Position numbers and translations under genes: made by a program. A stretch of 64,000 nt of DNA from an uncultured Clostridia bacterium (GTDB taxonomy: Bacteria > Bacillota > Clostridia > Christensenellales > UBA1242): assembly GCA_934747805.1 (NCBI GenBank), contig CAKVHC010000001.1, positions 22,286-86,285 of the forward strand. The letters run 5' to 3'. The number at the start of each line of letters is the position of its first letter. Positions within the stretch are counted from its first letter, which is position 1. Positions 6,055 through 30,600 of the stretch are shown here, piece by piece. Under the pieces are notes generated by a model that was not told the origin of the DNA, ran no database searches, and was given only the letters and a program-made list of their open reading frames with translations.

Positions 6055-6093
6055 GACCTCATAGTAAAAGGAATATTACAAAATCCTCCTAAG
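6055..6093 (+). pseudogene. 5' half of a disrupted tRNA-Arg(CCT) gene (acceptor 5' strand, D arm, anticodon stem 5' strand and loop)
   Basis: GACCTCA-TA-GTAA-AAGGAATA-TTAC-A-AAATC-CTCCTAA-G. It pairs perfectly with the 3' half at 23373-23415. Confidence 0.8.
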
Positions 6094-6219
6094 TATCGAC
6101 TTGGACAAATTGAAAATCGCTAAACACCCCTAAAACGCTGACAATTTGCGACCCCTCAAAACATTCTCAAAACCAAAGTTCACCAAAAGTTCACCCAACA
6201 TTAAAAAAACCACCTATAT

Positions 6220-6296
<77 letters not shown>

Positions 6297-6310
6297 ATTT
6301 TAAAACAAAA

Positions 6311-6342
6311 AAAGGCATCCCTGTTACTGAGATGCCTTTTTT
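6311..6342. terminator. Bidirectional terminator shared by the tRNA (+) and the RT gene (-)
   Basis: AAAGGCATC-11 nt-GATGCCTTT flanked by A and T runs. The RT stop codon lies in the loop. Confidence 0.7.
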
Positions 6343-7493: not shown

Positions 7494-7539
7494 AAAACTC
7501 CTCTAAAAGTAAAAACGCCAAATGTACTTCAACGATTAA

Positions 7540-7740
7540 TTAGTGATAATAGCCGAAATTCTTATGAAGGATTATCCCTAAATTAAAATTAGAATAAATT
7601 TCATTGATACCTTTAACTATAAAAATAATTGAAATTAACTCCAATGTATTAAGATGCAAAACCTTAATCAAAATAGGGAGCACAAAGATAAAAGTTAAAA
7701 AAATAAAGTTTTTTATGATTTTCTTTTTCTTTTTCTTCAT
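7540..7740 (-). CDS. 66-aa poly-Lys plus hydrophobic-helix membrane peptide between the structured leader and the RT gene
   Basis: AGGAGG SD lies 8 nt before the ATG at 7740. The sequence is MKKKKKKIIKNFIFLTFIFVLPILIKVL..., with a second short hydrophobic stretch LELISIIFIV. Confidence 0.5.
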   Translation of the reverse strand: MKKKKKKIIKNFIFLTFIFVLPILIKVLHLNTLELISIIFIVKGINEIYSNFNLGIILHKNFGYYH

Positions 7741-7760
7741 AGGCATCACCTCCTTTTAGT

Positions 7761-8040
7761 ATCTTAAATTTGAAATATCTAAAAAAAGGGACAACCACGA
7801 CAATCGGAACCTAAATTAACCTAGTTACATTTGGCTCTTTACTTGAGTGCATGGCATGAGTGTTTGTAGACAATGGAGAGGGCTTGCCCCTCGGAATGTC
7901 ACAAACACGCCATGAACGAACTTGGTCATCTTAAGCCAAAGTCTTGAGATGCCATTTGACCCATAAAAATGGACTACACGGATTTTCACCGTAATAATAT
8001 TGATGAGGTACTATTATCCATACCAATTTCAATATAAGAT
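7761..8040 (-). ncRNA. Candidate retron msr/msd-type (or DRT-type) structured non-coding RNA
   Basis: This ~280-nt ORF-free leader lies downstream of a consensus promoter. It has a 65-nt extended hairpin at 7850-7914, several short stem-loops, and terminal inverted repeats at 8040-8026 and 7776-7761. Confidence 0.45.
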
Positions 8041-8041
8041 A

Positions 8042-8070
8042 TATATAACATAATTTTCACCAAAAGTCAA
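8042..8070 (-). promoter_or_regulatory. Promoter of the ncRNA-peptide-RT operon
   Basis: On the minus strand: TTGACT (8070-8065), a 17-nt spacer, TGtTATATA (8050-8042). Confidence 0.55.
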
Positions 8071-8080
8071 GTTTATAGAA

Positions 8081-9472: not shown

Positions 9473-9485
9473 TTTATTTCTCCTT

Positions 9486-9704
9486 TTATCTAATAATTAC
9501 TTGTTCCATTGGTAGTTCATAATCTTTGCTCTGCAAGAAGGCAAGCAGTGAATCGTAGTCAATTAATACTTTCTTTCCAGTTTTAATTGACCTGATTTTG
9601 TATCCATCTGCCAACTTTCTTATTAAGAATTCACTAAGTCCAGTGTTTGGATCTTCCTGTTTAATCATTTGTAATGTTTCTTTAATTGTTCTTATTCTTT
9701 GCAT
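9486..9704 (-). CDS. xis: Excisionase-family / HTH DNA-binding protein
   Basis: Small protein immediately upstream of int. The pattern LSEFLIRKLADGYKIRSIKTGKKVLIDYDSLLAFL resembles Tn916-type Xis/HTH_17. Start chosen at the ATG at 9704 after GGAGGA. Confidence 0.6.
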   Translation of the reverse strand: MQRIRTIKETLQMIKQEDPNTGLSEFLIRKLADGYKIRSIKTGKKVLIDYDSLLAFLQSKDYELPMEQVIIR

Positions 9705-11627: not shown

Positions 11628-14600
11628 TTATATAATTCCAAAAAATTTTTCAAAGAATGCCAAAAGTTTTTCTATAATGTTTTTCTTTTTAATTTCACGA
11701 TTTCCGCCACCGAATCTTGACATTGCAGGCATTATTTTATCTATATCTGTACCTGTCGTTTTCATATTTCCATCTCTAAATGAATAATCTACAAATTTTC
11801 TTGTTTCAGCATCTTTCAAACCTTCTTGAGAAATTATCTGTGCAAGTTCTTTTTCCTTTTGCTCTGCAACAAACTCATGCCATTCAATCATTATGTCATC
11901 AACATCATTAATTCCAGCAATAAATGTGTCAATAAGTTGTTTTTTACTTCTAAGTTGCAAACTGCTATCTATTGCCTTGTTTATTGAAACAAGAATTTCT
12001 TTATCTTCACAATGTGTATCATGATATTTTTGAACTAGCAACAAGATATAATCTATATTAATCTCAATTTGTTTTATAAGCTCGACTTCAAAGACAACAT
12101 CATCATTGATATTTTCTTTATCACTATTATTTCGTCTACGTTTCCATTCTTCATACAAATCATTATATCTACCTTGATAATCCTGCAAATCTCTTTCAGT
12201 CAAAATTTCATTGCCAGCGAATTCATCAAATGAAGACAGAATATTGCGCATTCTAAGTATTGCTCCAAATAATCCTATAAAATCTTTTTGTGCCTGCTCT
12301 CCATAGATTTGAGGCTCTAATAATGGGTATTTATATTCTAGTTCCGCAATTAAATCCTTGTATCCAGGTTTCTTATTTCCTTTTTCATCAGTATATCCTT
12401 CAAAATAGTCTTTAAAACCTTTCATGAGACAAATGCCTCCAGCATTTTTATCTCCAAACAAACTAATTGCATCACCTGTTCTTTTCTGTAGGTTTCTAAA
12501 GCAAATTATATTTCCAAATGTTTTTATTGAATTAAGTATTCTGTTTGTCCTTGAAAATGCTTGAATAAGTCCATGCTGCTTAAGATTTTTGTCAACCCAT
12601 AAAGTGTTAAGGGTAGTGGCATCAAATCCAGTTAAAAACATATTTACAACAATCAATAGATCGATCTGTCTATTTTTCATTCTGAGTGACACATCTTTAT
12701 AATAGTTTTGAAATCTATCGCTTGAAGTATCATATTTAGTTTGAAACATTTTATTATAATCGTCTATTGCACCATCCAAAAAATCTCTTGAAGTCTTGTC
12801 AAGCCTTGTTGTATCTTCACTGTTTTCTTCACCAAGTATTCCATCAGACTCTTCTTCGTTTGCTCCATAACTGAAAATCGTTGCGATTTTAAGTTTTTTG
12901 CTTGGGTTTTCTTTCATTTGCTTTTTGAATTCATTGTAGTAAGCTTTTGCCGCATCAATAGAAGCAACGCAAAACATAGAGTTGAATCCATTCAAGTATA
13001 ATTTGTCTTTTTGTTCTTCAATTTTTTCGTTTCTTCTAGCGCTAGCAACTTCGGTAATATTCAAAAGGCTATTGAATGAATACATTTTTTCATTTCTATA
13101 AGTTTTGCTGTTATAGTGATCTAAAATATAACTTACAATTTTACTTATTCTTTGTGGTGCTAAAAAAGCCTTTCCTCTATCAATATCATTAACTGGTTTA
13201 TCATCAATGTCTGGTTCTTTATCCATTGTTTTTATATAATCGACCCTGAATGGTAAAACATTTTTATCATTTATAGCATCTACTATTGTATAAGTATGGA
13301 GCATATCACCAAAAGCCTGTTCAGTCGTTTTTAATTGAACATCTTTTCCACCACTAGAATTTGCTGCAAAAATTGGTGTGCCCGTAAACCCGAATAAATG
13401 ATAATTTTTAAATTTGCCTGTAATAGATTTATGCATATCGCCAAATTGCGATCTATGACACTCATCAAATATAATTACAATATGTTTATTATAAATTGAA
13501 TGATCTTTGTTTTTAGATATAAATCTATCAAGTTTTTGAATGGTTGTTATGATAATTCTACATTGGTCATTTTCTAGTTGCTTTTTAAGTATAGCAGTAG
13601 ATGTATTGCTATTTGCTGCCCCTTTTTCAAATCGATCATATTCTTTCATCGTTTGATAGTCCAAATCTTTTCTATCAACAACAAATAATACTTTATCTAT
13701 AAAAGGCAAGTTAGTAGCAAGTTGAGCGGTTTTAAATGATGTAAGAGTTTTACCACTTCCAGTTGTGTGCCAAATGTATCCACCAGCTTTAACTGTTCCA
13801 TATGTCTTATAGTTGTTTGATATTTCAATTCTGTTGATAATTCTTTCGGTCGCGACAATTTGATATGGTCTCATTACTAAAAGCATGTTTTCAGATGTAA
13901 AAACACAATATTTTGTTAAGATATTTAACAATGTATGCTTGGAAAAGAAGGTTTTTGTGAAATCAACAAGGTCGGGAATAATCTTATTACTTCCATCTGC
14001 CCAGAATGAAGTAAACTCAAAACTATTGCTTGTTTTAGACTTCCTTGCAGATTGTTGTTTGTTAAAATCTTTAACATGATTCCATCTTGTTGTATTAGAG
14101 TAATACTTTGTATTTGTTCCATTAGAGATCACAAATATTTGCACATATTCAAATAATCCACTTGATGCCCAAAAACTATCCCTTTGATATCGTTCTATTT
14201 GATTAAATGCTTCACGAATTGCAACTCCACGACGTTTTAATTCTACATGAACCAGAGGAAGTCCATTAACTAATATTGTTACATCATATCTTGTGTCATG
14301 ATTACCATTTGTTTCTATGTATTGGTTTATTACTTGTAATTTATTATTGTGAATATTAGTTTTGTCTATAAACTTAATGTTTTTTGTTGTTCCATCATCT
14401 CTGTGTAAAATTTGAACATAGTCTTCTTGAATCTTTCTTGTTTTTTCAACAATGCCTTCATTTTTACCTATTATGCACGAAGAAAGAAACTGATCCCATT
14501 CACTATCAGAAAAATTGTATTTATTTAATTCTTCTAGTCTTTTTCTTAAATTCAAAATCAAATCAGCTTCTGTGTGAATAGGTAAGTACTCATAGCTTTG

Positions 14601-14738
14601 TGATTGTAACAATTTAATAAACTCTTTTTCAAGTTGAGCTTCGCTTTGATACTTATCAGACTTGTTATTTGTAGGCTTATACTCAGTCATAACAGTGCTT
14701 TCGCTAGATTCTGAAACTATGTTACAAAAACTCATCAT
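11628..14738 (-). CDS. hsdR: Type I restriction enzyme R subunit
   Basis: SF2 helicase motifs (TGSGKTLTS, IIFDECHRSQ, TGTPI, QAFSRTNR) and an N-terminal nuclease region (DVTILVNGLPLVHVELK). SD AAGGAGA is present. Confidence 0.93.
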   Translation of the reverse strand: MMSFCNIVSESSESTVMTEYKPTNNKSDKYQSEAQLEKEFIKLLQSQSYEYLPIHTEADLILNLRKRLEELNKYNFSDSEWDQFLSSCIIGKNEGIVEKTRKIQEDYVQILHRDDGTTKNIKFIDKTNIHNNKLQVINQYIETNGNHDTRYDVTILVNGLPLVHVELKRRGVAIREAFNQIERYQRDSFWASSGLFEYVQIFVISNGTNTKYYSNTTRWNHVKDFNKQQSARKSKTSNSFEFTSFWADGSNKIIPDLVDFTKTFFSKHTLLNILTKYCVFTSENMLLVMRPYQIVATERIINRIEISNNYKTYGTVKAGGYIWHTTGSGKTLTSFKTAQLATNLPFIDKVLFVVDRKDLDYQTMKEYDRFEKGAANSNTSTAILKKQLENDQCRIIITTIQKLDRFISKNKDHSIYNKHIVIIFDECHRSQFGDMHKSITGKFKNYHLFGFTGTPIFAANSSGGKDVQLKTTEQAFGDMLHTYTIVDAINDKNVLPFRVDYIKTMDKEPDIDDKPVNDIDRGKAFLAPQRISKIVSYILDHYNSKTYRNEKMYSFNSLLNITEVASARRNEKIEEQKDKLYLNGFNSMFCVASIDAAKAYYNEFKKQMKENPSKKLKIATIFSYGANEEESDGILGEENSEDTTRLDKTSRDFLDGAIDDYNKMFQTKYDTSSDRFQNYYKDVSLRMKNRQIDLLIVVNMFLTGFDATTLNTLWVDKNLKQHGLIQAFSRTNRILNSIKTFGNIICFRNLQKRTGDAISLFGDKNAGGICLMKGFKDYFEGYTDEKGNKKPGYKDLIAELEYKYPLLEPQIYGEQAQKDFIGLFGAILRMRNILSSFDEFAGNEILTERDLQDYQGRYNDLYEEWKRRRNNSDKENINDDVVFEVELIKQIEINIDYILLLVQKYHDTHCEDKEILVSINKAIDSSLQLRSKKQLIDTFIAGINDVDDIMIEWHEFVAEQKEKELAQIISQEGLKDAETRKFVDYSFRDGNMKTTGTDIDKIMPAMSRFGGGNREIKKKNIIEKLLAFFEKFFGII

Positions 14739-14753
14739 TTTCTCCTTATGTTT

Positions 14754-15872
14754 TTAATTTACTTTTTCCTTAAATGTCAAAAGTTTATTTCTATAATACT
14801 CGTATTGTTGTTGTCTTTTTTCTATTTCTGCCGGCAACCCAATTCCAAGGTCAGAACATATTTTGTCAAAGTTGTCTAAAACATTCACAATTCGTTGTTG
14901 AATGTCAAGTGGAGGAATTGGAATTTCATAATTTACAATCATTGGAATTGTTAATTGAGGGATGCCTGTTTCTGGTATTTTAAATTGAACAGTTTGAAGA
15001 TAATGATACAAAAATTCTGCCATTAAATCTTTCTTTGGTTGTGCAGAAATCAAACGAATAATAGGATAAAATGGTTCATTTCGTAACGCACAATGGCCTA
15101 CAGTTCCTCTAGCAGCAATCGTAACGCATTTATTTTTTACTTTTGCCACATCAGTATAACCATACAAAGCATTTTCCCCGACTCCATTACTATAAATTGG
15201 AATATTATATGTCTTGGTCCTAATTTTAGAAAACCTATCCTTTGGGACATCTCCACCCGCCGACAATAAACATACATCACCAAGTTTTTTCCATTCAAAT
15301 TTCGGTTCTTCAAAGGTTAAAAGTTTATCTCTATAATAATTATATTGCTTTTTTCTCGCTGTAAGCTCCGCTGTAAGCTCCGCTGTAAGCTCCGTGAAAT
15401 TGTCAAGTACCTTGACAATTTCACTTTGGACTTCCAAAGGTGGAATTGGAATTTTAAATTTATCAATGTCAGTTTTATTAAGGGCTGGAATGCTTCCACG
15501 AGAAACAATTGAACTCATTATATTTTCTTCACAATTTTTTAATGCATAATACATGTATTTAGTCTTATATTCAGATTCGTTCTTTGAACGGTAAGGATAA
15601 CATAAACCACCAGCCCAAAAATCTTCGTTTATATATGAAATAAAACCTGCATATTCTCCCCTTGAAGCGATAGTAATTGCATTTTTAGTATTATTGTTTT
15701 TATCGTATTTACCATAAAAGTCTCTGCCTGAATTCATAACGGGATAACCAACAGCTTTTAATTCACTTTGTTTAAGAGTACCTTTAGGTAAGTTACAACA
15801 TATTTCATCAATTTTTTTGAATTCCACACCATCAGGGCATAATTTTTCAATCAATTCTTCAATTTTACTCAT
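14754..15872 (-). CDS. hsdS: Type I restriction enzyme S (specificity) subunit
   Basis: Two TRDs, each followed by a conserved helix ([19 protein letters not shown]...[14 protein letters not shown] and [19 protein letters not shown]...[15 protein letters not shown]). The ATG at 15872 overlaps the hsdM stop by 8 nt. Confidence 0.9.
15357..15392 (-). repeat. Perfect 3 x 12-bp tandem repeat (GAGCTTACAGCG, encoding ELTA x3) in the central conserved helix of hsdS
   Basis: The plus strand reads CGCTGTAAGCTC three times in tandem. It translates to ...[17 protein letters not shown]... Confidence 0.95.
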
Positions 15873-17463
15873 TATTATTGCCTCCTTCAATGTCGGCAAT
15901 AATTTTGTCAATTTCTTTTCTCAAAACTTCTTCGTGAGCGACGATTTCTTTTATTTGTTGATTTAACACCTTTATATCAATTTTTTCTTTTGTATCTTCT
16001 TTCTCAACATAAGTAGAAACTGAAAGATTGTAGTTTTGTTTTGCAATTTCTTCATTAGAAACAAGTTTTGCAATGTTATCAACGTCCCTTCTATTTGAAA
16101 ATAATTCAAGAATTTTTTCAATATCCCCGTCTTTGCCTGTTCTTAACTTATTGTTGTTTGTAACTTTAACACAATACTTACTTGCATCTATAAAGAGTGT
16201 GGAATTATCATTTTTAGACTTTTTTAATACCATTATACAGGTTGCTATGCTTGTACCAAAAAATAGGTTATCTGGCAATTGAATAATAGAATCGATAAAG
16301 TTGTTATCTATCAAATATTGTCTTATTTTTTGCTCAGCACCACCACGATAGAATATTCCAGGGAAGCATACAATTGCAGCAGTTCCATTTGTTGCAAGCC
16401 AAGAAAGCGAGTGCATAACAAATGCAAGGTCAGCCTTAGACTTTGGTGCAAGAACTCCAGCTGGAGCAAATCTTGGATCATTTATAAGCTTTATATCATC
16501 ATCGCCAGGCCACTTAATTGAATATGGTGGATTAGAAACAATTGCTTCAAAAGGTTCTTCATCCCAATGTTGAGGAGCAAGAAGAGTGTCATCACAAGCG
16601 ATGTTAAACTCATCATAATTGATGTCATGTAAAAACATATTGATTCTGCAAAGATTGTATGTTGTTAGATTTACTTCTTGACCAAAAAAACCTTGACGGA
16701 CTTTATCTTTTCCTAAAACTTTTGCAAAGTTCAAAAGAAGTGAGCCAGAGCCGCACGCTGGGTCATAAACCTTATTGACTTCTGTTTTACCAACAACAGT
16801 TAGTCTTGTAAGTAATTCTGAAACTTCTTGTGGAGTATAATACTCGCCACCAGATTTCCCAGCATTTGAAGCATACATTCCCATCAAAAATTCATAGGCA
16901 TCACCAAACGCATCTATTGTATTATCTTGATAATTACCAAGCTTCATTTCGCCAATGTTGTCTAAAATTTTAAGCAATTTTTCATTTCTTTTAGCAACCG
17001 TAGCACCAAGTTTATTTGAGTTAACATCAATATCATCAAATAAGCCTTTAAAATCATCTTCGCTATCGCTGCCTTTAGCAGAGTTTTCAATGGCTTTAAA
17101 AACCTTTTCCAATGTTTCATTTAGATTTTCTTTGTATTTGGGATATTTATTTGCATTCGCTCTTACATTGCAAAAAAGTTGGCTTGGCAAAATGAAAAAG
17201 CCTCTACTGTTTACCATATCTTCTCGAGCCTGTTCAGCTTCTGAATCACTTAATTTTGTGTAATCAAAGCCAATATCACCATAATCATGTTCATTTTTGT
17301 TTATATAATTTGCTATGTTCTCAGAGATATATCTGTAAAACATAAAGCCTAGAACATATTGTTTAAAGTCCCAACCATCAACCGAACCTCTTAAATCATT
17401 CGCAATATTCCAAATCGCTTTATGTAGTTCATCTCTTTCTTGTTCTTTAATGTTATTTGCCAT
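15865..17463 (-). CDS. hsdM: Type I restriction enzyme M subunit (N6-adenine DNA methyltransferase)
   Basis: N-terminal HsdM_N-like [36 protein letters not shown], AdoMet motif [10 protein letters not shown] and catalytic NPPY (SNPPYS). Confidence 0.95.
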
Positions 17464-17472: not shown

Positions 17473-18537
17473 CTATAATTTTATTTTATATGTGTTAATG
17501 AAATAGTCAAAGCCATCTTTAAAAATATTTATTTGTTCATTCGTTAGATATTCTGTTTCTAAATCCATATATCGTTCGTGACTATTCATATTTACTATTT
17601 TATTCAGATCTTCTTTGTGGTCATAATTTGCAAATAAATCTTGCCAACTAGAATAGCCCAAAAATATTGAACTTTTTTCTATAACACTTCTAAAAATGTT
17701 AAAATGATTCTTTCTTATTGTATTCGTATTAAATGCCTTTTTTATTTCGGCAAGTGATTTTAGGTGATATGATATTGGGGTGCTAGTCCCCAGATTTTTA
17801 AGATAAATATTTTGATCAATATTTTGCATTATGTAAAATAGACATTTTGAATTTCTATTTCTTAGTGTGTTAAAAAGTATATTATAAAACATAACATGGT
17901 GTGTTGTAATCAAAAATTTAATGTCTATTTCTTTTTCATGTACATATTGGATTAATTTAATGAGCTGCATTGACAAAGTATAAATTTTAAATTCATCTAA
18001 TGACGACATCGGATCATCAATTATTATGTATTTCAAATTATTGAACTCTTCAGTTGATCTATCTTCTTGTTTTTCACTTAATATATCAACAGCTTGCTTT
18101 AATGCAGCGTAAAAAACCGACCATTTAAATAAAGTTTCTTCACCTTTTGAAATCTTAACAGCAATCCTATTACCATTTTCGTCAGGCAGTAAAAATTGTA
18201 CATTACCAGTATCAAAATCAATTAAAGGTTCAATTTTAACATCTGTAAATTTATTAAAATAAAATAAAATATCTTTTTCTAAGTACTCATCCTTAATAAA
18301 ATTAAAAAGCCATGTATTTGTTAAAATTGACATAATCTTTTCTTCATTATCCCATGTAAAATAATCTTCAACAATTGCATTATAACTAAGAGATTCTATA
18401 TTTTCATCATTTTCAAAAGTACAAGACAATCTTGTTTTTCCTGTTGCATTGAAAGCATACAAAAGCACATCTTTATCAGAATCAAGATCATTTTTTATAT
18501 GGGTTGCAATATTTTCAAAACCTATTATTTCGCTCAT
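17473..18537 (-). CDS. PrrC-like ABC-type ATPase with a candidate anticodon-nuclease C-terminal domain
   Basis: Walker A-like AFNATGKT, signature-like ISKGEETL, Walker B YIIIDDPMSSLD and TTHH. The C-terminal FRSVIE...(33 aa)...H matches the Rx3E...H spacing I recall for the PrrC catalytic triad. A 9-nt gap separates it from hsdM. Confidence 0.5.
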   Translation of the reverse strand: MSEIIGFENIATHIKNDLDSDKDVLLYAFNATGKTRLSCTFENDENIESLSYNAIVEDYFTWDNEEKIMSILTNTWLFNFIKDEYLEKDILFYFNKFTDVKIEPLIDFDTGNVQFLLPDENGNRIAVKISKGEETLFKWSVFYAALKQAVDILSEKQEDRSTEEFNNLKYIIIDDPMSSLDEFKIYTLSMQLIKLIQYVHEKEIDIKFLITTHHVMFYNILFNTLRNRNSKCLFYIMQNIDQNIYLKNLGTSTPISYHLKSLAEIKKAFNTNTIRKNHFNIFRSVIEKSSIFLGYSSWQDLFANYDHKEDLNKIVNMNSHERYMDLETEYLTNEQINIFKDGFDYFINTYKIKL

Positions 18538-18539: not shown

Positions 18540-19214
18540 TTATATACCTAATCTTGTTCTTAATTCCATTGATAGGATTTCACCATTATATGTAAAAACA
18601 TCAGTGCCTGCAACATGTCTATTTTTGCTGCCACGTTGCACATTCAATTCTCCAGCTAATCCACTCAGAGAATATTGTTTCCCTTCATATTCAACTTTTG
18701 TTTCAGATATAACTATACATTTTATTGTTGGATCTTTTGTGTAAACAAGCTCAGCGTCAATTGGAATTCCATATTCAGAAAATGTAAGTTTTTTCCTAGT
18801 CCTTTCATAGTGTCTTTTAATCTCACCAGCTTCTTTTGTTTGTTTTCTCTGTTCTTGAGTTGGAGCAATGCGTTTTAAGTTCTTCAATAGACCATTTATC
18901 GATGCAATGTCTTCTAGCGTTTGATATGCATCTTCAGCACTCATAATATAAAACTCTCTTTTGCGTTGTTTACCATTATTATTTTCAATTGCTTTTAACC
19001 CTGGGTTAAATCTATCAATTATTGCATGGACTTTTTTATCAGTTAAACGCTCAGCTACTTTATAAGTTGCATATACCTGGAAAGAAAAAGGAATGCATTC
19101 ACTTCTATTTAGTTGTGTTAATCTTTCATCAACATCACTTGCATAACCAATTTTCACATATTCCGGGAAAGATGGGTTTGTTAAAATGTAAATATATCCA
19201 GCAGTTTCTTCCAT
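18540..19214 (-). CDS. GIY-YIG / T5orf172-type nuclease-domain protein with a DUF4357-like C-terminal domain
   Basis: GYIYILTN...YVKIGYA...RL..LN... at the N terminus. The C-terminal region YEGKQYSLSGLAGELN...FTYNGEIL is of the kind often seen in type I R-M operons. SD GGAGG lies before the ATG at 19214. Confidence 0.7.
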   Translation of the reverse strand: MEETAGYIYILTNPSFPEYVKIGYASDVDERLTQLNRSECIPFSFQVYATYKVAERLTDKKVHAIIDRFNPGLKAIENNNGKQRKREFYIMSAEDAYQTLEDIASINGLLKNLKRIAPTQEQRKQTKEAGEIKRHYERTRKKLTFSEYGIPIDAELVYTKDPTIKCIVISETKVEYEGKQYSLSGLAGELNVQRGSKNRHVAGTDVFTYNGEILSMELRTRLGI

Positions 19215-19325
19215 AAAGACCTCCAATCTATGACAATTATAACATAAAAAATCTGTAAATTGTATTTAATTTACAATATTTTATAAGAAAAATATTTTTC
19301 CTTAGAAAATGTGGTGAAAAATTAT

Positions 19326-19501: not shown

Positions 19502-20059
19502 ATGAAAGCGAGATTTGTTTGTGATATTTCTAATGCAAGATTAGCAAGAAATAGAATTGATAGGAGCGAAGGATTTGTAGCTAAGTTTGTAGTTGAAAGA
19601 GTGGTATATTTGGCAAGAGATTATTTTATATATTTTAGAGAACATTTGCTAGAAGATAACCCTAATATCGTTGCACATAAACACGAAATGTATATTGATA
19701 ACAAAGGCTGTTTTTATGTAATTATGTTTTGTTGTTTACATAGTGACATTATGCTTTTGGTTTACAGCGATGACAAAGAATATGCCAAGTATGTTTCTAT
19801 AATTTCAAATGGAGGTGAAAAAGTTGAACAACGTTTTACAACTAGTAAAAGATACACTAAAAACGAAAAACTCAGCACAGAAGAACAACTGCAACTAACT
19901 AAAATTTGCGAATTAGAAGATGAGTTCGTAAAGAATTTTTCAAAAGAAAAATGGCGAGAGTATTTTAATTTAGACATAGAAAAAGGTCAACTTGTAAATC
20001 TAAAAATTGACCATGTTATTGAAACTACCTACAAAGTTTGTAAAGAATTACTCAAATAA
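19502..20059 (+). CDS. Hypothetical protein (185 aa), no recognisable domain
   Basis: SD GGAGGTGG lies before the ATG. The C-terminal half looks helical and charged. It lies upstream of the dam/DGQHR pair. Confidence 0.5.
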   Translation: MKARFVCDISNARLARNRIDRSEGFVAKFVVERVVYLARDYFIYFREHLLEDNPNIVAHKHEMYIDNKGCFYVIMFCCLHSDIMLLVYSDDKEYAKYVSIISNGGEKVEQRFTTSKRYTKNEKLSTEEQLQLTKICELEDEFVKNFSKEKWREYFNLDIEKGQLVNLKIDHVIETTYKVCKELLK

Positions 20060-20147
20060 AGTGTTGAATTTATAAAAAATTTATAATAATTTGTGATTAT
20101 AGTGCAAAAATTGTATTTTTGTGCTATAATTTTTTTAGGAGAAAATT

Positions 20148-20972
20148 ATGATTACACCCTTTTTAAGATGGGCTGGTGGTAAACGCTGGTTAATTAACGA
20201 AGTAAATGATTTAATAAGAGGCTACGAATTTAATAATTATTATGAGCCTTTTCTTGGTAGTGCTGCAATTTTTTTTAATATTGAAGCTTCTTTCACTAAA
20301 TGTTATCTTAATGATATAAATAATGAGTTAATCTTAACCTATAAACAAGTTAAAGAAAATAAGAACTCTGTTATTAAATATTTAAAACAATTTCCGAATG
20401 AAAAAGATTTTTATTATGATATCAGAAAAAAACGATTTAGAAGTTTAAGTAAGCAAGCTGCTCAATTCATCTATCTAAATCACACCTCCTATAATGGTAT
20501 TTATAGGGTTAATAGTAAAGGCGAATATAATGTTCCTTTTGGGTATAAAAAGAACTACACAATCGATGAACAATCTCTCAATACATGTTCTGAAAAGTTG
20601 CAAAATTCAGTTCTATCTTCAGGTAACTTTACATGCTTTGTAGATCAAATCCAAGAAGGAGACTTAATCTTTCTAGATCCGCCATATACTGTTTCACACA
20701 ACAATAATGGTTTTATAGAATATAATAAAAACTTATTTTCATTAGAAGATCAAATAAGATTGAGTGAATTTATAGATAAAATAAAAGAAAAAAGGGCTTA
20801 TTATATATTAACAAATGCTGTCCACAAAAAAATTGATGAAATATTTGATAAAGGCGATTACAAATATATCCTTAATCGATCTAGCACTATAGGTGGAAGA
20901 AATGCAAAGCGAGGACAAATAGAAGAATATTTATTTACTAATATTAAAAGGAGAAATTCTAGTGATAATTAA
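20148..20972 (+). CDS. dam: Dam-family (D12 class) N6-adenine DNA methyltransferase
   Basis: N-terminal PFLRWAGGKRWL, EPFLGSAAIFF, and catalytic DPPY at 20676-20687. SD AGGAG is present. Confidence 0.9.
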   Translation: MITPFLRWAGGKRWLINEVNDLIRGYEFNNYYEPFLGSAAIFFNIEASFTKCYLNDINNELILTYKQVKENKNSVIKYLKQFPNEKDFYYDIRKKRFRSLSKQAAQFIYLNHTSYNGIYRVNSKGEYNVPFGYKKNYTIDEQSLNTCSEKLQNSVLSSGNFTCFVDQIQEGDLIFLDPPYTVSHNNNGFIEYNKNLFSLEDQIRLSEFIDKIKEKRAYYILTNAVHKKIDEIFDKGDYKYILNRSSTIGGRNAKRGQIEEYLFTNIKRRNSSDN

Positions 20973-23196
20973 TCAAGCTCTAGACTTAAGTACAGATCAA
21001 AAAAAGTTATTGACAAATGTAAAACAAAAGTTTATTCGCAAAACAATTTTAAAAGAAGAAATTTCTAATTATGAAGAGCAAGGATATGTTGTATCTTCAA
21101 AACAAAAATCAAAAGCAATTGTAAAAAAATTAAAACCAGAAATTGAACTTGGTTATTATGAGTTTGTTCAATTGTTTTGTGAAATGGGTTTTAAAATTAT
21201 TCCCAATTTGCCACATTCTTTTAATGATGAGACAAAAGATATATCTGATTTTAGTTTTATCGCAGAAGATAATGAATGTATTTTAATTTGCTATTACTTA
21301 TATTCTTATGCAAAAAAAGAAATAAGTTGTTTTGAACAAGTCTTAGAAAATATCAGATCAAATTATGGAGAATTATTAAAAGAACTTAGAAAAATATTTA
21401 CTGGCAATAAAAAATTTAAGGTTATCATTTGCACAAAAAACTACGCCATTTCTAAAAGTGATATTTCCTTTATTGGTGAACAGAAATATTTTTATATCGA
21501 TGATGATAGATTAGAATATTATAACAATTTAAACAAGCATCTCGGCAACGCATCAAAGTATCAATTATTGGGAAATCTGTTCTCAGGACAAAAGATTGCA
21601 AACTTAGATGAAGTAATACCTGCCATACAAGGCAAAATGGGAGGATTAACATATTATTCTTTTTCTATAGAACCAGAAAAACTATTAAAAATAGGATACA
21701 TACTTCATAGGACAGATGCGAATAGAAATGATATGCCAACATATCAAAGACTTATTAGAAAATCAAGATTAAAACAAATAGAAACTTTTATTAATAATGG
21801 TGGTTTCTTTCCTAACTCTGTTATTATAAGCATTGATACAAATAAAAAAGGGTTAACTTTCTCTCTTTCTAGTTTGCAAGACGAAACTTCAATCTCAAAA
21901 ATAGGTCTACTAAAACTACCTCAAAGATATAAGTCTGTTTATATTATTGATGGACAACATCGTCTTTATGGTTATGCAAACACACAATATAAAGAGACAA
22001 ACACCATACCTGTAGTTGCCTTTTTGGATCTTGCTAAAAATGATCAGATAAAGCTTTTTATGGAGATTAATGAAAATCAAAAATCAGTATCGAAAAATCT
22101 TAGAACAACACTAAATGCGGATCTATTATGGGATTCTGAAAATCCAACAGAAAGAAACACGGCTCTTTTCTCAAGAATTGCTCAGGAATTAGGAGAAAAT
22201 ACAGATTCTCCTTTATTTGATAGAGTTATTATTGGTGAAAATAATAAAACAGACAAGTGTTGTATTACATTAGATACAATTAGGGATGCTTTGGATAAAT
22301 CTGGTCTGTTTAATAAATATAAAGGATCAGAAATTGAGCGTTCTGGTATTTGTGATTTAAATAATAATGATAAAAACTTTGACAATATATTTGCTTTATT
22401 AGTTAGTTCTTTTAAATATATTAAACAAAATGACATTGAAAATTGGAATAAATCAGAAGATGAAAACAAATGGGTATACAATATTTCAATTTACGGAATT
22501 ATAAGAATTATTTCTGACATATCTAATATCTTATTAACAACTAATCTATATAATCAAGACAAAATTAATGAACATTTTGAAGATTTTAAACCTTATCTAG
22601 ATGCAATAATTCAAGGTGTAAATGATTTGAATGACGAGCAGAAGAAAGATTTAAAAACTTCTTATGGTGGCGGAGGCCGAATTAAGTATTGGAGAACATT
22701 ACAAGGTTTTATTTTAAGTAAATTCCCAAATATTATTTTTGATGGATATGAGGAGTGGCAAAAAAATAATACAAAACAATTTAATACCCAAGCATTTTCT
22801 TTAATAAGTGATATCGAATCATATTTAAATGAAAAAGTAAAAGAAAAATTAGTTTCTGAATTTGGTAAAAAATGGATGATAAATGGCATCCCTAAAGCTG
22901 TTATGCAAAAAATCAGAGATTTAAAAACGGAAAAAGAATATGAAGAGCCAGATATTGAAATAGATGAGTGGGATTGTTTGCACCTTATAGACTATAGAGA
23001 CATTATGATAAATAATTGGCAAAACATTTTTGATAAGGATTATTCCGATCCTTTCGTTAAAGGACGTTCAAAAAAAGATAAAACCGAATGGTTGGTAAAT
23101 TTAAATAGAATAAGAAATAATGTAGACCATAATAGAAGTGTTTCTGAAGAAGATTTCAAATATTTAAACAACATTCATAATTGGCTTATAAAGTAG
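20962..23196 (+). CDS. DGQHR-domain (DndB / ParB-Srx-like) protein with an unassigned N-terminal domain and a C-terminal HEPN-like Rx4H motif (744 aa)
   Basis: YIIDGQHRLYGY (21949-21963 encodes DGQHR), then FMEINENQKSVSKNL. C-terminal WLVNLNRIRNNVDHNRSV (R716/H723, 23107-23130). A GTG start after AGGAGA overlaps the dam stop by 11 nt. Confidence 0.8.
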   Translation: MIINQALDLSTDQKKLLTNVKQKFIRKTILKEEISNYEEQGYVVSSKQKSKAIVKKLKPEIELGYYEFVQLFCEMGFKIIPNLPHSFNDETKDISDFSFIAEDNECILICYYLYSYAKKEISCFEQVLENIRSNYGELLKELRKIFTGNKKFKVIICTKNYAISKSDISFIGEQKYFYIDDDRLEYYNNLNKHLGNASKYQLLGNLFSGQKIANLDEVIPAIQGKMGGLTYYSFSIEPEKLLKIGYILHRTDANRNDMPTYQRLIRKSRLKQIETFINNGGFFPNSVIISIDTNKKGLTFSLSSLQDETSISKIGLLKLPQRYKSVYIIDGQHRLYGYANTQYKETNTIPVVAFLDLAKNDQIKLFMEINENQKSVSKNLRTTLNADLLWDSENPTERNTALFSRIAQELGENTDSPLFDRVIIGENNKTDKCCITLDTIRDALDKSGLFNKYKGSEIERSGICDLNNNDKNFDNIFALLVSSFKYIKQNDIENWNKSEDENKWVYNISIYGIIRIISDISNILLTTNLYNQDKINEHFEDFKPYLDAIIQGVNDLNDEQKKDLKTSYGGGGRIKYWRTLQGFILSKFPNIIFDGYEEWQKNNTKQFNTQAFSLISDIESYLNEKVKEKLVSEFGKKWMINGIPKAVMQKIRDLKTEKEYEEPDIEIDEWDCLHLIDYRDIMINNWQNIFDKDYSDPFVKGRSKKDKTEWLVNLNRIRNNVDHNRSVSEEDFKYLNNIHNWLIK

Positions 23197-24604: not shown

Positions 24605-27600
24605 CTACTTGGCATATGCCCAAACTGCACTAAATACTGTGTCGCCAGTTATTGTAAAACCTTTCAATACATCACACGACTCAGTGTCTGGCTGAGTGGC
24701 CAATTTGTTGTAAGACAACTGTCGTGGTCCAGTAACGCTCCATGTATGTAAGTTAAAAGCATATTCTTTTCTAATATACGCACCAGTATATGCATAAATA
24801 CACGATGTGGTATATTTGGTTAAATCAATATAAGTGCCTTGTAGTACTTTAAATGGTTGGCTAGGAATATTTGCTGCCTTTACACATTCAGTACGAATAA
24901 ACCATTTTCCAAGGGTCTTTTTATCGTTTTCCCAAGTTGCCGGCTTAACGAAATCTACACAGAACGATACAGTATAATATTTTCTCACATCAACAGTCCA
25001 ATCAGCCTGCAAAGTTGTATCTTCTTTCGGCATAGAAAAAGTTTCAGTGTTTTCGACTCTGTTTTCACCTATGTAATAGCCATTAAACGTGTAATCAATA
25101 CGTTCAATCTCTTTTCCATCATCATAAAAGTAAGTCGACTGTTGTGGAATCTTAATCATTTCGCCTTGATAAATCGTTTGAACGGTGTTTAAAACCGTAC
25201 CATAAGCGGATTTAATTGTCAAGGTGTAGCGATTGCGGATGTAAATCTTTACATCTGCACTTGGCATTGTGAACGCATCAAAGTCCACAAGTTCTGTGAA
25301 ATTTGCATCTAAGTAATAGAGTGTGGATTCAACCAGTCGTGCATCGCTGATCGCTGGTTTAACTCCTTCTACCACATAATGTGAGTAGATATTTTCATCG
25401 CCGTCAATTATTTCTAGCAAATAGCTTTCTTCAGCCTTAACGACCATCCACTTTGCATACAATGTCACACTGTCGTTTGGCATAGTCTTTGAATTAAACA
25501 CATTGTTAAATTCAGCATCAACATACCAGCCGTCAAATCGTTTGGTGTAAGTTATATTGCCAATTTTTTCGACTAATGGTTGGTCATATTGTGGCAATTC
25601 CAATTCCGCCCCAACCAGTGAAGTAATGTCTGCAATTGCTTCTCCGCCGTTAGTTACGAAACTAATTGTCACATAGTTAACAGACGCTATCTCCCACTTT
25701 GCATAAAGCAATGTGTCACGTCGTGGCATAATGTTCTGATTGTATTCGCTGTCCGAGTCGAAAGACTTGGTTGTATACCAGCCAGCGAAAGTATGATACG
25801 TTCTTTCACTAGCGGTATCAACGAAATAATCATTAAGCGTTGGCAAGGTCAATTCGCTGCCTGCCACTCCCTTGATGTCGGCAATTTTTTCAGAGCAGTT
25901 CGTTTCAAAACTTAATAAGAACTCACGTTGACTACTTAAGTTCCAATCTCCGTCATACGCATCCCAGGCTGAACCTTCGCTTAAACCAGCGTTGGCAGAT
26001 GTGAAATCGTACATTTCTTGCATATCTGTTTTAGCGCCAATATTGACAAGGTTGAGATTGTCTGATTTTAGAACAATATTAACACTAGAAGCCAGGTCAA
26101 TATTCATGTCCACTGTGAGTCCGCCCACAATCTTGTCGCCATTATAGTTCTGAGTTCTAACGCCAACAGTCATATTGCCCAGTTTATCGTCTTCGACAAG
26201 TTCTTGCAAGTTGATAACCAGCTCATAATAATTCTCAGTTGCGCTGAATCCTTTCAGTACATTGCTGTAATCGAGTGGATTCTGGCGTTCTTTGTTCACA
26301 AGTTTGTTGATTTCAGCCATAATCTTTTCACTGAAACCGAATCCGTATTGCAAAATATAATACAAAGGGTCATCAAGTAAGGTGTCAACATGAATCTTCA
26401 TTTTCTTTTCGTACAATCTGTCTGCTTGGAACACTGTCGTTGGCACAGTTTCAGATCTGTACAAATATACCATATTGTCTTTGATATAAATGTGGAGTAT
26501 TCGATTCAATCCAGAATAGATGCCGCTTGTGACATTGCCCACTTTGAATGGAACGTCATCATTGACACCTGGCACAACAGGAATAGCTCCAAGTCGTGCG
26601 CTGGCTTCAAACTCGTTGCCGCCCAACAGTTTGACTTTGACATTGACAGGAATGTTCCAATCGATGTTGATTCCAACCACGTTGAGTTTCAAGTTAATTG
26701 AGCCGTCAATCTCAAAATCTGTAAACTGTTTACTATTTGCCAATGCGTCAATCAGATTTTCCACACCAGACAAATCAATGTAGTCCGCAGCAGGAGCACT
26801 CGCAATAGGTGTAAATTCTTGCAAAGCAATTGACACGCTGTCAACTTGGTTGTTGGCAATTGTCAAGTCCTTTACAACCAGACTAGTTAGGCTGTCGGCA
26901 TCATAATCCACATCCAATTTGAGAGTGTGGATTTCGTCCAAGTCAAGTCCTAAATCTGTCAAATCTACAACAATCGCTATATTAGAATCGGTGATAGACA
27001 GTTTTTCAATCATCTCAATCTTAAACTTATTCAATATTTCATCAATGTTAAATCCGTCAATCATTTGAGTGATTTTTTGAATATCTATGTCGCCCATCTC
27101 CACATTCAATAGTTCGCTAACTGCACTAATGAGTTGGCCTATATTGTCGCCGCCAATCTTGGCGTACATTTTGTTGTATCGAATGTAAAGCCCGTTGTCT
27201 ATGAATGTGATCTCAATCGAGTGTTGGTTAGTCACCGTGCTGTATGGGTTTTGTGCACGCACTCCGTTCGTGTACTCAAACTTTTCAGTTATTGTCGTCA
27301 CTTCAAAGTTGATATATGCACGCATTTTGTTTATGTTAAATTTGTTTTTGCCGTTTTCAATTGTGTAAGCATCTTTCCATTCAAAGCGTGCGTTACTTCC
27401 GTCCAGCATATGAATGGTTGTGACCACTGCCTTTAGCGGATTGTCTCTTGCATCTCTTTGCACTGAACTATGTACAATATCTGTTTTCAGTCCAAATGCA
27501 ATCTGCTTGTTATCCACAACTTCAATCGCAGTGTTCAAAACGCTATTGATAACGTCTTGCAAAGAATCTAAACTACAATATATGCTTTCGTCAGCCATTT

Positions 27601-30600
27601 TTGGTGGAATAAATTCGTCAAGGATATTAATGCTGCCTGACAAACTCATGCCTTTTATTGCGAGCGATTTAATGTCTACACCAGTAATTTTGTCGGCATA
27701 GTTGATTGCAACTAGCAAATCTTGTTCAGCGCCAAACATTGTTTTGTCTAAACAAATCTGTGCTGCGTTGCAACCTATGTTCAATGCCTTAATCCATGTG
27801 CAATCGATTGAACTAAAGTCGCCAGACTTAATTGCATCGAAGTCAATGCTTGGCAACAATTGACTTAGTATCTTTCTTAAATCAATGTCGCCCTTTTGAG
27901 ATATCACTTTATCCTTAGATTCTGCAATTAGGTCACGCATTGATATGTTGGTTATATCTTGTGTTTTCAGACTCTCGCTTAGGAATTTGAGTTGCATTAC
28001 AACGTCAACAATTGAGTCAAGTTCACCAACACCTAAACAAACGTTCAATGTGTTGTATGTCAGGTAAATTCTTTCACCGTCATAGAACACCGTTATATCA
28101 TGAGAATATCCGCCGTCCTCAGTCAAGTTCAAATGCACATAGCCGTTCAAAGCCATTATGCCACTAGGTGTTGAAGTGTCGGTGAAATCTTTTATTTTGC
28201 TGAAATCTACATACACGTTGCCATATGCTCGGAATGTCTTGCCGTTCATAACAAGGATGGTGTTAGAAATTGTTATTGCTAATGTCTTATCTGCTTTAAC
28301 CTTTTCTATAGTATTGAGCACGCTATTAATTGCCTTGTCAACGCCAGAAATGTCTTGATATTCATCTGCATTTAGTTGGCTAGGAGTGAAATAATAATCT
28401 AGTCCAGCACTAAATCCAATTTCATAATCACCAAGCTGAACATTTACTAGAGCAATGCTTGACAACAAGTTCTTGTAGCCAAGTACAATGTTAATATCTT
28501 CGCTGCTGCCAATTAGTGACTTGTCTAATGTAATAGACAACTCATAGTCTGTTAGTGAAAGTTGTTTGATCAATAAGAGGGATATGTTTGTATAATCACC
28601 TGCAATGATCTCACTTACAATTGAGCCGGCAATCAGGTCTGTAAATTTGCTTGCGTCAATGTCGATTGGTACAAATTTTTCAATAGTAGGGATCAAATCT
28701 TTAATGCTATCGCATGCAATCTTAAGTTTGAGTCCTTGATAGTCAACATATATAATGCCGTTATCCAGTCTGACGACAAATGCGAACTCTTTTCCGTTCA
28801 CTGTCGCAGTTATGTCAGCATACACTGTCAGGTCATTAATAGAGAACACTGTTTTCAGCTTGCTTGCATTTACATAAACTCTGCCACTAAGTCCAATTAC
28901 CTTGCCAGAGATATTGGCATTGGCATTGAGGTTGAGTGCAATCTGTTTGGTGTCTTTGAGTCTTTCAATAGTCGACTTTAATGCACTGATTAAGTCGCTT
29001 GTGCTAGACATATCTGCATAGTCGTCTACAAATGTCGGAACACGAACACCTGTTGACAAGGCTAAGTCTACGCTAGCTGCAATACCTTTCATGGATAGAT
29101 CTGAAATTGAGATAGATTGAATGCTATTTGCATAACCGATTTCAATTGTAATGTCATTGTCTGTCGCAGTGAAATCTTTGCTAAGTGTGACTGTTGTTTT
29201 GTCTTCGCCGATTGCAATGTTTTTAATTATTGCCAACGACAAACTTGACAGGTCGCCAGATAGAATGTCTTTTATGTTAAATGTTGGGAAAATATTTCGA
29301 ATAATGCTGTCAATGTCAATCTCAATGCCGAACTGAGATTTTAATAGGTCGACGATTTTCTCAATTGGCATACTGAGTTTCAATCCATCAACTGAGACAT
29401 AAATCGTTTTCTTTATGACATATGCTTCTACAGCAAATGTTCTGCCTAACGCCGATATGCTTAAGTCAGCATAGATTGTGTCACCGTCGACTACAGTTTT
29501 GCCTGCGACTGAGATTTCTTTGCCTTTAACTGTCATAAGAGCGTCAATGTTGAGTGTTACGCCGTTTTGTTTGAATCCGTCAACAGTTGTCAACACTGCA
29601 TTGAGCAACTTATCTACGTTTGCAATTGAGATTGTATTAACTTGAGTGAAATCTTTTTCCACAAATCTATCTGCAATGTGGATATCTGCGCCAGCCGAAA
29701 TGCCAAACAAGTTGAGTTCGCCAATTGTAAGGCTAGTGATTGTTTTGTCAAATCCAAACACAACACTTAGGTCATCCGGAGTGTTCAGAAGTGACTTGTC
29801 TAGTCCTATGCTGAACGTATTTTCACCAGTGGTGATATATTTCAAAAGATTGGTTGGCAATGCTTCAATGTTGCCTGCAATCAGATTGAATATAAGGCTA
29901 AAGTTTGCTTTTAGATTATTAGTGACGTCTGACATGTTGCCCAGTTTGTCAGACAAAGCAGACTTCAAATTGTCGATTTCAGCAATGCTCGTTTTAATCG
30001 TAATATTGTCAAGTGCGAAATAAATTTCATCACCTGTCATTGACATTGTCAGGTCAAACGTCTTGTTAAATGCTTTGACCTTTGCGTCCATATAAATATG
30101 TAAATTGTTTGTGTCAGCAAAGTCAAGGTTTACATTCGCACTAACATTGGTCTTCGTGCCACGAATGTCAGCTTGGGTGTCTAGCACGAACGAAATTTGT
30201 TTGTTCTTCAAGATTTGTCTTGCACTGGTGATAAGTGCATCGGCAAACTTATCTATATTAGTCAAATGTGCATATTGCTGTTTATCTAGATTTGGAATGT
30301 TAACGTTGGCGCTATATCCCAACACCAAATCCAATTTGTAGCCAGCGATATTAATGTCTAATAGTGAAAGATAACTGAATTGGTTGTTTTCGTCTAAGCC
30401 GATTTCAATGTTTATGTCGTTATCAATGCCCAATCCTTTGGCAAGTATTGTGATTTTAATCACATTGTCTTCGCCTTTAGCGACTTGCAATAAGTTGTTG
30501 ATATCAATTCCGTTCAAGCCGTTTGGCAAAAGTGATTTGATATCAAGGTTTGGCAATTTGCCAGCCAGCAAGCCCATTAAACTGTTTATAACATTTTCGT

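Follow-up and report, generated by a model that had tools for sequence, protein, structure and literature searches.

The subject of this study is a pair of overlapping genes in a 64,000-nucleotide (nt) stretch of DNA from an uncultured Clostridia bacterium (contig CAKVHC010000001.1, positions 22,286 to 86,285); this whole stretch is referred to as the window. The first gene encodes a Dam-like DNA methyltransferase, and the second encodes a 744-amino-acid (aa) protein, referred to as the effector, in which a restriction-endonuclease-like fold, a central DGQHR domain, and a predicted C-terminal HEPN domain follow one another. The methyltransferase and the DGQHR-HEPN protein form a genuine, conserved, and widespread two-gene module. 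On balance, we favor the interpretation that it is a restriction-modification (R-M)-like defense module with a methylation-gated effector switched by a ParB-type nucleoside triphosphatase (NTPase) domain, the output of which in the window copy would be RNA cleavage by the HEPN domain. The features of the gene pair are as follows (window coordinates).

20122-20130, + strand: extended -10-like sequence TGcTATAAT upstream of the methyltransferase gene, a possible operon promoter (read from the sequence)
20137-20142, + strand: Shine-Dalgarno sequence AGGAGA of the methyltransferase gene, 5 nt before the ATG at 20148
20148-20972, + strand: methyltransferase gene, 274 aa, D12-class Dam/DpnM-like N6-adenine DNA methyltransferase
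20676-20687, + strand: DPPY motif of the methyltransferase
20949-20954, + strand: Shine-Dalgarno sequence AGGAGA of the effector gene, within the 3' end of the methyltransferase gene and 7 nt before the GTG
20962-20972, + strand: overlap of the two genes, 11 nt
20962-23196, + strand: effector gene, 744 aa, GTG start, three domains
20962-21132, + strand: N-terminal α/β subdomain, aa 1-57 (secondary structure of the AlphaFold2 [AF2] model)
21133-21606, + strand: PD-(D/E)xK fold (restriction-endonuclease/NucS-like), aa 58-215 (family consensus, Foldseek, and Pfam matches of relatives)
21607-22596, + strand: DGQHR domain (ParB/Srx-like, DndB/DpdB-type), aa ~216-545 (TIGR03187, PADLOC, and PHROGs)
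21949-21963, + strand: DGQHR motif, aa 330-334
22777-23193, + strand: predicted Swt1-like HEPN domain, aa ~606-744 (PF18731, Rx4H motif, and helix prediction)
23113-23130, + strand: HEPN Rx4H motif, R718-N-N-V-D-H723

The gene pair and the methyltransferase

The coordinates of the reading frames, the GTG start, the DPPY motif, the 11-nt overlap, and the AGGAGA in front of the effector gene were all found again where the original prediction, made from the sequence alone, had placed them. The promoter proposed at the same time fared less well: the TGcTATAAT sequence is present, but promoter-like sites in this AT-rich region occur at background frequency (27 versus 27.1 in shuffled sequences), and the site was not listed by the promoter scan because it has no -35 match. 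No terminator was found after position 23196 in the promoter and terminator scan, in which nothing exceeded the shuffled background.

The first gene product belongs to the D12/Dam class, as had been predicted, with matches to PF02086 (E = 2.9e-45), the NCBIfam model TIGR00571 'dam' (219.8 bits, cutoff = 114.85), and the PADLOC model MTase_II (5.5e-88). Its closest solved relative is DpnM (PDB accession number 2dpm, E = 2.7e-47), which methylates GATC in the DpnII system, with E. coli Dam next, and the YNGIYR DNA-contact motif of the window enzyme is common to Dam and DpnM. The window enzyme is approximately 35% identical to the DpnM-like enzymes of DpnII cassettes. The similarity to DpnM and Dam, together with four loci in which the effector is embedded in a DpnII cassette (described below), suggests at the sequence level a link to GATC.

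Domain structure of the effector

The proteins of the 744-aa family are annotated solely as 'DGQHR domain-containing protein', and the predicted presence of this domain in the window protein is borne out by TIGR03187 (159.1 bits, cutoff = 58.85, aa 221-519). Matches to related families were also obtained with Pfam (PF14072 DndB, 56 bits), PADLOC (DpdB, 3e-21, aa 228-545), and PHROGs (phrog_1033 'ParB-like partition protein', 7.8e-10, aa 258-391). The stretches YIIDGQHRLYGY and FMEINENQKSVSKNL, to which the DGQHR assignment had been tied, and LNRIRNNVDHNRSV, to which the HEPN assignment had been tied, are all present in the protein. In a census of 77 species-level effector sequences, which underlies all of the motif counts given here, the D, Q, H, and R of the DGQHR motif are each found in 77 of 77 and the G in 76, and no other region of the effector is as highly conserved as the DGQHR core (mean pairwise identity = 0.63).

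The C-terminal residues 608 to 742 are predicted to be all-helical in the AF2 model and carry the Rx4H motif, which is intact in 55 of the 77 sequences. The Swt1-like HEPN domain that had been predicted here is upheld by this motif but not fully by its profile, since the match to HEPN_Swt1 (PF18731) is subthreshold (23.8 bits versus 27.5, E = 5.8e-5, aa 619-736). In an alignment of 36 effector homologues reaching down to 40% identity, 14 of the 36 match PF18731 at an E value of ≤0.01 (best, 3e-6); two relatives carry precomputed PF18731 matches, and the C terminus of the window protein gives a PADLOC match to PDC-M34B at 1e-3. R718, N719, and H723 are invariant in the alignment while R716, which the original prediction took to be the HEPN arginine, is variable; R718 is the conserved residue.

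The first ~200 residues, which had been described as lacking a recognizable fold, do have one, although it is catalytically degenerate in this protein. Residues 1 to 57 form an α/β subdomain that is the least conserved region of the effector (mean pairwise identity = 0.26), and the invariant K58 stands directly after it. In the region that follows, the consensus of the 36 homologues, IDVFAADxETILxIECK, is a PD-(D/E)xK signature of the NucS/RecB type. The AF2 model of residues 1 to 214 (predicted local distance difference test score [pLDDT] = 86.8, predicted template modeling score = 0.84) retrieved Cdn1 (E = 9.9e-4, probability = 0.99) and EndoMS/NucS (probability = 0.91) from the PDB with Foldseek and also Nt.BspD6I, FokI, Hjc, and McrC; the template modeling scores are low (0.3 to 0.38), yet the matches are uniformly PD-(D/E)xK nucleases. 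A few relatives match the Pfam profiles Hjc, Card1_endonuc, or NERD by sequence. The catalytic D/E/K positions 98, 111, and 113 are occupied by S98, Y111, and L113 in the window protein and are replaced in its close clade too, whereas the triad is intact in 49 of the 77 sequences; judged from these residues, the canonical PD-(D/E)xK site is lost in the window copy. On the other hand, K58, D103, E105, K151, and N160 are conserved in 74 to 77 of the 77 sequences, which exceeds the conservation of the triad, and D103 and E105 are located at the tip of the β2-β3 hairpin, away from the canonical nuclease site.

These residues bear on the alternative that the effector is an orthodox type II-like restriction endonuclease (REase) that cuts unmethylated sites via the DGQHR domain or a D103/E105/K151 site, with the HEPN domain as an accessory or structural element. 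We consider this unlikely. It would account for the order of the two genes, in which methyltransferase then nuclease with an overlap is typical of R-M operons, for the restriction-endonuclease fold at the N terminus and the canonical triad of many relatives, and for the near invariance of D103, E105, and K151 even where the triad is lost; moreover, literature cited in PMC12839542 indicates that ParB/Srx proteins can nick DNA, and 16 of the 77 relatives keep the triad without the HEPN motif. It is difficult to reconcile, however, with the S/Y/L state of the triad in the window copy, with the 22 members that keep only the HEPN motif, with the coexistence of the effector and R.DpnII in four loci, and with the profile searches, in which the effector matched neither PF04556 (DpnII) nor any other REase family of Pfam, nor the REase_II model of PADLOC.

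Distribution and linkage to the methyltransferase

Full-length homologues of the effector (745 to 790 aa) are found in more than 3,000 clusters at an E value of ≤1e-3 among the candidates scored, and at least 519 relatives were confirmed in GTDB contigs with one genome per species. At least six phyla are represented among them (Bacillota, Bacteroidota, Actinomycetota, Pseudomonadota, Chloroflexota, Acidobacteriota, and others), and the family is present in Listeria monocytogenes, Enterococcus, and many gut Clostridia. The occurrence of full-length homologues at 35 to 46% identity across phyla excludes chance. A Clostridia metagenome-assembled genome (MAG) carries a locus (L008) with 98% identity to the window itself. 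Among phage genomes, only short DGQHR-domain matches were found and no full-length relative of the effector; a DNA-level search of plasmids with the cassette returned nothing beyond a 110-nt patch in dam genes of staphylococci.

The linkage of the two genes was counted in the best 80 species-level loci. Four of these are on contigs without upstream DNA, and a D12 methyltransferase gene lies beside the effector gene in 73 of the remaining 76, so that the absence of conserved linkage, by which the original prediction proposed that it could be refuted, is not observed. With jackhmmer, the methyltransferase was found in 69 loci, of which 67 have it upstream in the same orientation, usually overlapping the effector gene by 4 nt, and 2 have it in divergent orientation (Listeria L021 and Enterococcus L042); in 4 further loci, a divergent D12 gene immediately upstream was recognized with Pfam (160 and 70 bits for the two that were scanned). 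The three exceptions are a locus with only a D12 fragment inside a 480-aa upstream open reading frame (ORF) in a transposase-rich stretch (L060), a locus with a truncated effector and no D12 gene upstream (L050), and a locus in which the effector begins 52 nt from the contig end (L053). The same methyltransferase-effector pattern is seen in preannotated contigs. The identities of the methyltransferases and of the effectors across loci are weakly correlated (r = 0.10 to 0.38); this weak cophylogeny means that partners have been exchanged but the pairing as such has been retained, and the sequences thereby imply selection for the pairing.

Loss of the nuclease heads across the family

When the 77 sequences are sorted by the state of the REase triad and the HEPN Rx4H motif, both are intact in 33, only the HEPN motif in 22 (including the window protein), only the REase triad in 16, and neither in 6; thus, 71 members retain at least one intact nuclease motif. 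Double loss in 6 sequences, compared with approximately 8 expected under independence, indicates that the two heads were lost independently and rules out the complementary loss that we had also considered. On these sequence patterns, the family appears as a constant DGQHR core with swappable nuclease heads.

In all six loci with neither motif (L028, L031, L033, L034, L037, and L040, at ~3513-5132 in each), a gene of 527 to 536 aa that combines a NERD nuclease with a superfamily 1/2 helicase ends 2 to 3 nt before the methyltransferase gene, which gives the order NERD-helicase, D12 methyltransferase, and DGQHR protein without the REase triad and without Rx4H. The hosts are MAGs of gut Clostridia, Oscillospiraceae, and Erysipelotrichaceae. 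No NERD match was found in the remaining flanking ORFs (119 ORFs scanned in total). The six loci form one clade, with 69 to 90% identity among themselves and ≤59% identity to others, so that the Fisher P value of 7.6e-9 for NERD versus double head loss is not to be taken at face value; the association probably arose once and has since persisted as the loci diverged substantially. The NERD-helicase looks like a nuclease supplied in trans.

The interchange of heads raises a related possibility, which we hold only tentatively: the module may be an R-M system with a non-DNA-cutting arm, in which a ParB clamp reads methylation and unmethylated DNA, probably at GATC, fires whichever head is attached. 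The HEPN domain of the window protein would then turn the recognition of foreign DNA into RNA destruction or abortive infection, and elsewhere the same sensor would drive a PD-(D/E)xK DNase in cis or the NERD-helicase in trans. If this is true, the family is a naturally occurring case in which a single sensor is combined with interchangeable effectors.

Variant loci

In four flavobacterial loci (L044, L054, L067, and L071), the effector gene lies inside a complete DpnII (GATC) cassette. The genes are tightly packed in the order D12 methyltransferase, R.DpnII (PF04556, 322 bits), effector, and a DpnA-like N6_N4 methyltransferase, as exemplified by L071 (304-5275), where the effector is located between R.DpnII and the DpnA-like methyltransferase.

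Hundreds of L. monocytogenes assemblies carry the effector as two fragments, of 273 aa and 438 aa, together with an intact D12 methyltransferase. In loci L090 to L092, the effector fragments are at 5001-5822 and 5960-7276, and the divergently transcribed methyltransferase gene is at 3937-4800. A split effector with an intact methyltransferase is decay typical of costly restriction genes. A protein with MrcB_N and NOV_C domains is encoded approximately 1 kb downstream of the fragments in these loci (8358-9623).

Distant full-length relatives (29% identity), on the Novosphingobium plasmid pNL1 and an Agrobacterium plasmid, adjoin genes for radical-SAM, small DGQHR, and GHKL-ATPase proteins, and in Agrobacterium, a gene for a PIN-like protein is also nearby. 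Radical-SAM neighborhoods are found in L088 (pNL1 118072-130243), L089, L029 (2949-5602), and L045 (194-4872); in L029 and L045, the radical-SAM genes (of the B12-binding type in L029) stand alongside a D12 methyltransferase, and L045 also has a small DGQHR gene. These neighborhoods suggest that the large DGQHR protein may partner with another module, possibly of the modification type and perhaps for a different DNA modification.

Such neighbors are part of what can be said for a quite unlikely alternative, namely, that the effector is a nontoxic accessory or regulator of modification, like DndB or DpdB, in which the nuclease-like domains are relics or DNA- or RNA-binding modules. The best-characterized DGQHR proteins do serve modification, DndB as a repressor and ATPase (PMC10853773) and DpdB as a base-insertion ATPase (PMC12839542); the DGQHR core is the sole invariant part of the family, with nuclease motifs lost in many lineages, and the gene occurs in DpnII cassettes that already hold a restriction enzyme. 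Against this, Dam/DpnM-type methyltransferases work alone, almost all members keep a nuclease motif and the remaining six have the NERD nuclease-helicase gene in the operon, and the scores of the window protein are far under the DndB-type and DpdB equivalog cutoffs (given below). The disruption of the effector in Listeria with the methyltransferase kept fits a costly restriction-like gene better, and the Pfam search of the effector gave no helix-turn-helix or other clear transcription factor domain.

Proposed mechanism

For the favored R-M-like module, the steps would be as follows. The methyltransferase would mark host DNA with N6-methyladenine (m6A), most likely at GATC. The DGQHR domain may serve as a nucleoside triphosphate (NTP)-dependent switch that engages DNA without the mark; we infer this because of precedent, since in SspE and GmrSD the ParB/DUF262 NTPase domains sense DNA modification and activate the nucleases to which they are fused (PMC12065111) and since a DndB-like protein binds ATP and GTP (PMC12704722). 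The degenerate nuclease-fold region at the N terminus would help to bind DNA, with no cutting by the canonical site. The DGQHR switch would then license a nuclease head, which in the family is a PD-(D/E)xK DNase or a HEPN RNase. Because the HEPN head is the only one with an intact catalytic motif in the window copy, the predicted output there is RNA cleavage by a HEPN dimer, in the manner of abortive infection and possibly accompanied by DNA nicking by the ParB-like domain. Methylation would block the effector rather than being required for its action.

This scheme is suggested by the methyltransferase linkage, the constant core with its variable heads, the NERD gene, the restriction-like decay in Listeria, and the defense-island context described below. 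Several observations weigh against it. The activities of the effector are deduced from sequence, the HEPN profile match is subthreshold, and Foldseek with the full-length AF2 model (pLDDT = 83.1) recovered no ParB or HEPN structure but only weak matches (E ≥ 0.04), all of the nuclease fold; a search of PDB chains with a profile of the family alignment also gave no match at an E value of ≤1. The N-terminal domain of the window protein might still be active via a noncanonical site, given the conservation of D103, E105, K58, and K151, which exceeds that of the triad. Since R.DpnII is already present in the DpnII cassettes, the effector is not simply "the" restriction enzyme there. The GATC specificity of the methyltransferase is not established, because the methyltransferases paired with the effectors fall into several divergent D12 subfamilies and the position corresponding to Dam R137 is occupied by a different residue. 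GATC is only moderately underrepresented in the window (observed/expected = 0.55), as is CATG (0.55), and GGCC (0.26) and CGCG (0.12) are far rarer; avoidance of GATC is therefore not diagnostic of specificity. The modification-side roles of characterized DGQHR proteins, mentioned above, belong here as well. Finally, no effector domain covaries with the methyltransferase, and none stands out after controlling for the DGQHR domain.

The lack of a covarying DNA-reading domain is also compatible with a methylation-dependent alarm, in which the ParB-like domain would sense m6A nucleotides or fragments from phage-degraded host DNA and switch on the HEPN domain. We regard this as the least probable of the explanations considered. 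The ParB fold binds nucleotides, and its specificity is flexible (PMC12704722); an obligate methyltransferase linkage is compatible with a signal made by the methyltransferase, and a 2026 preprint reports a defense module triggered by Dam-derived m6-dAMP (10.64898/2026.01.15.699771), although for the present module this would be an analogy only. The N-terminal DNA-nuclease fold, whose triad is intact in the majority of members, points instead to an effector that acts on DNA directly, and the loss of the effector in Listeria with the methyltransferase kept is more simply explained by R-M-type toxicity.

If the favored scheme is true, the module represents a widespread type of R-M-like immunity in which a ParB-fold NTP switch links the sensing of DNA methylation to RNA and/or DNA nucleases, and it would provide a test bed for the roles of ParB-fold NTPases outside segregation and for the triggering of HEPN RNases in R-M loci. 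Many orphan-looking Dam-like methylases, such as those of Listeria, would become remnants or partners of a defense system, a reassignment that would matter for the interpretation of bacterial methylomes and for transformation barriers.

Genomic context

The cassette lies in an integrase-bearing defense island, which agrees with the original placement on an integrative element beside other defense modules. The features of the island and its surroundings are as follows.

6220-6296: tRNA-Arg(CCT)
6324-7493: retron-type reverse transcriptase (PADLOC RT_VI, 1.7e-53)
8081-9472: tyrosine integrase
11628-14738, - strand: hsdR of a type I R-M system
14754-15911, - strand: hsdS
15865-17463, - strand: hsdM
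17473-18537, - strand: PrrC-type anticodon-nuclease gene (PADLOC PrrC, 4.2e-81), in the type I operon
18540-19226, - strand: T5orf172 (GIY-YIG-like) protein, 228 aa (PADLOC PDC-S57, 8.1e-82)
19502-20059, + strand: 185-aa ORF, matching only phrog_21303 (a phage family)
23631-24452, - strand: 273-aa ORF with two CxxC pairs (zinc-ribbon-like) and a helical C terminus (sole match, phrog_25239, 3.1e-15)
24605-31696, - strand: 2,363-aa ORF with an N-terminal hydrophobic segment and a weak Flg_new match, immediately beyond the cassette

The region with the tRNA-Arg, reverse transcriptase, and integrase (6220-9472) is likely the island boundary, and the reverse transcriptase is possibly a type VI retron. 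At the other end, the 2,363-aa protein, which from its sequence is likely secreted or surface anchored, may mark the end of the island. The hsdR/S/M genes with PrrC, which are located 2.4 kb from the cassette, show the classical pattern in which a type I R-M system is guarded by a HEPN RNase. T5orf172 nucleases are known as fusions to m6A-reading RAMA domains (Iyer et al. 2015, PMC4738411); the C-terminal ~120 aa of the T5orf172 protein in the window gave no family match. The 185-aa ORF, for which the original prediction left membership in the cassette undecided, matched no Pfam, PADLOC, or NCBIfam family and is ruled out as a third component, since it occurs next to the closest relatives, L010 and, in fragmented form, L008, but not across the family. 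The 273-aa ORF accompanies the cassette in three metagenome contigs that encode an identical effector (L001 to L003). A PADLOC scan of flanking ORFs at homologous loci found scattered defense genes (AbiEii, ApeA, and GajB-like), with no baseline against which enrichment could be judged.

The mobile island, the degenerate N-terminal nuclease site of the window copy, and the ability of R-M-like pairs to persist as addiction modules would all fit a selfish addiction cassette or a decaying remnant with no present defense role in the window genome, which we consider very unlikely. The effector ORF is full length, with intact DGQHR and HEPN motifs; an identical protein is encoded on four metagenome contigs, and near-identical copies (93 to 99%) occur elsewhere. 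Furthermore, relatives as distant as 69% identity (L010) still have S/Y/L or G/Y/L at the triad positions, indicating purifying selection on that form.

Comparison with known systems

As far as our searches show, the module has not been named so far; it is R-M-like, and the architecture of its components was partly foreseen computationally in 2013. The original suggestion of an unrecognized system holds in that no system-level model of PADLOC, NCBIfam, or Pfam matched the module and that our literature searches found no paper that names it, defines its operon, or tests it; a Prevotella R-M paper and the Domainator paper were false leads. It does not hold entirely for the architecture, because ParB-HEPN fusions were already listed at that time. 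Anantharaman et al. (2013, PMC3710099) give a Swt1-like HEPN domain fused to ParB (Saro_3948) as a one-line table item and predict HEPN domains fused or linked to ParB and methylases in R-M contexts, and according to Makarova et al. (2013, PMC3632139), ParB-like domains of the DGQHR/COG1479 type occur as fusions with HEPN or PD-(D/E)xK nucleases and in linkage with modification systems. The window module has the same parts as the ParB-HEPN class of 2013 (a ParB domain, a Swt1-like HEPN domain with Rx4-6H, and a methylase or R-M link) and falls within it. The pNL1 protein aligns over 96% of the window effector with 28.6% identity, has DndB and HEPN_Swt1 matches, and shares organism and architecture with Saro_3948, although the identity of the locus tag is unconfirmed. 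The pNL1 copy stands beside radical-SAM, GHKL, and small-DGQHR genes, with no methyltransferase listed next to it in the PLSDB gene table, which is incomplete. The entries of Anantharaman et al. come without operon analysis, name, or experiment, and the PD-(D/E)xK domain, the obligate Dam-type partner, the independent decay of the heads, and the embedding in DpnII cassettes are not described in the 2013 entries.

With the DpnII system, the module shares a methyltransferase of the DpnM/Dam family, to which the window enzyme belongs by its D12 domain with DPPY and its above-cutoff TIGR00571 match, and a tightly coupled operon with the methyltransferase first. The partner in the window, however, is a 744-aa protein with ParB-like and HEPN domains and not an endonuclease of the DpnII/MboI family. 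Compared with orthodox type II R-M systems in general, the adjacency of methyltransferase and nuclease genes is the same, but the window copy has neither an intact canonical DNA-endonuclease site nor a match to a known REase family in Pfam or PADLOC.

PrrC and RloC resemble the effector in that a HEPN RNase is coupled to R-M as a suicide or backup arm. PrrC, however, has an ABC-type ATPase and is restrained by a type I enzyme, whereas the window effector has a ParB-type domain as its regulator and a type II-style methyltransferase as its sole obligatory partner.

The DGQHR domain is common to DndB, DpdB, and the window effector, but the equivalog level is reached for neither family (DndB, TIGR04172, 89.3 bits versus a cutoff of 450; DpdB, NF041060, 71.4 bits versus a cutoff of 300). 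The effector is approximately twice the size of DndB or DpdB, with the additional N-terminal nuclease fold and C-terminal HEPN domain, and no dnd or dpd genes and no TGT-like (dpdA) gene were found among the neighbors scanned.

GmrSD, SspE, and BrxU likewise fuse a ParB/Srx-type DGQ(H/Q)R domain to a nuclease (PMC4619093, PMC12065111). Their domains are DUF262 (DGQQR) and a DUF1524 HNH nuclease, whereas the window effector has no DUF262 or DUF1524 match in Pfam, and they are modification dependent (type IV) or phosphorothioate sensing, without a cognate methyltransferase. The linkage of the PD-(D/E)xK and HEPN heads to a methyltransferase implies the opposite logic for the present module, namely, attack on unmodified DNA.

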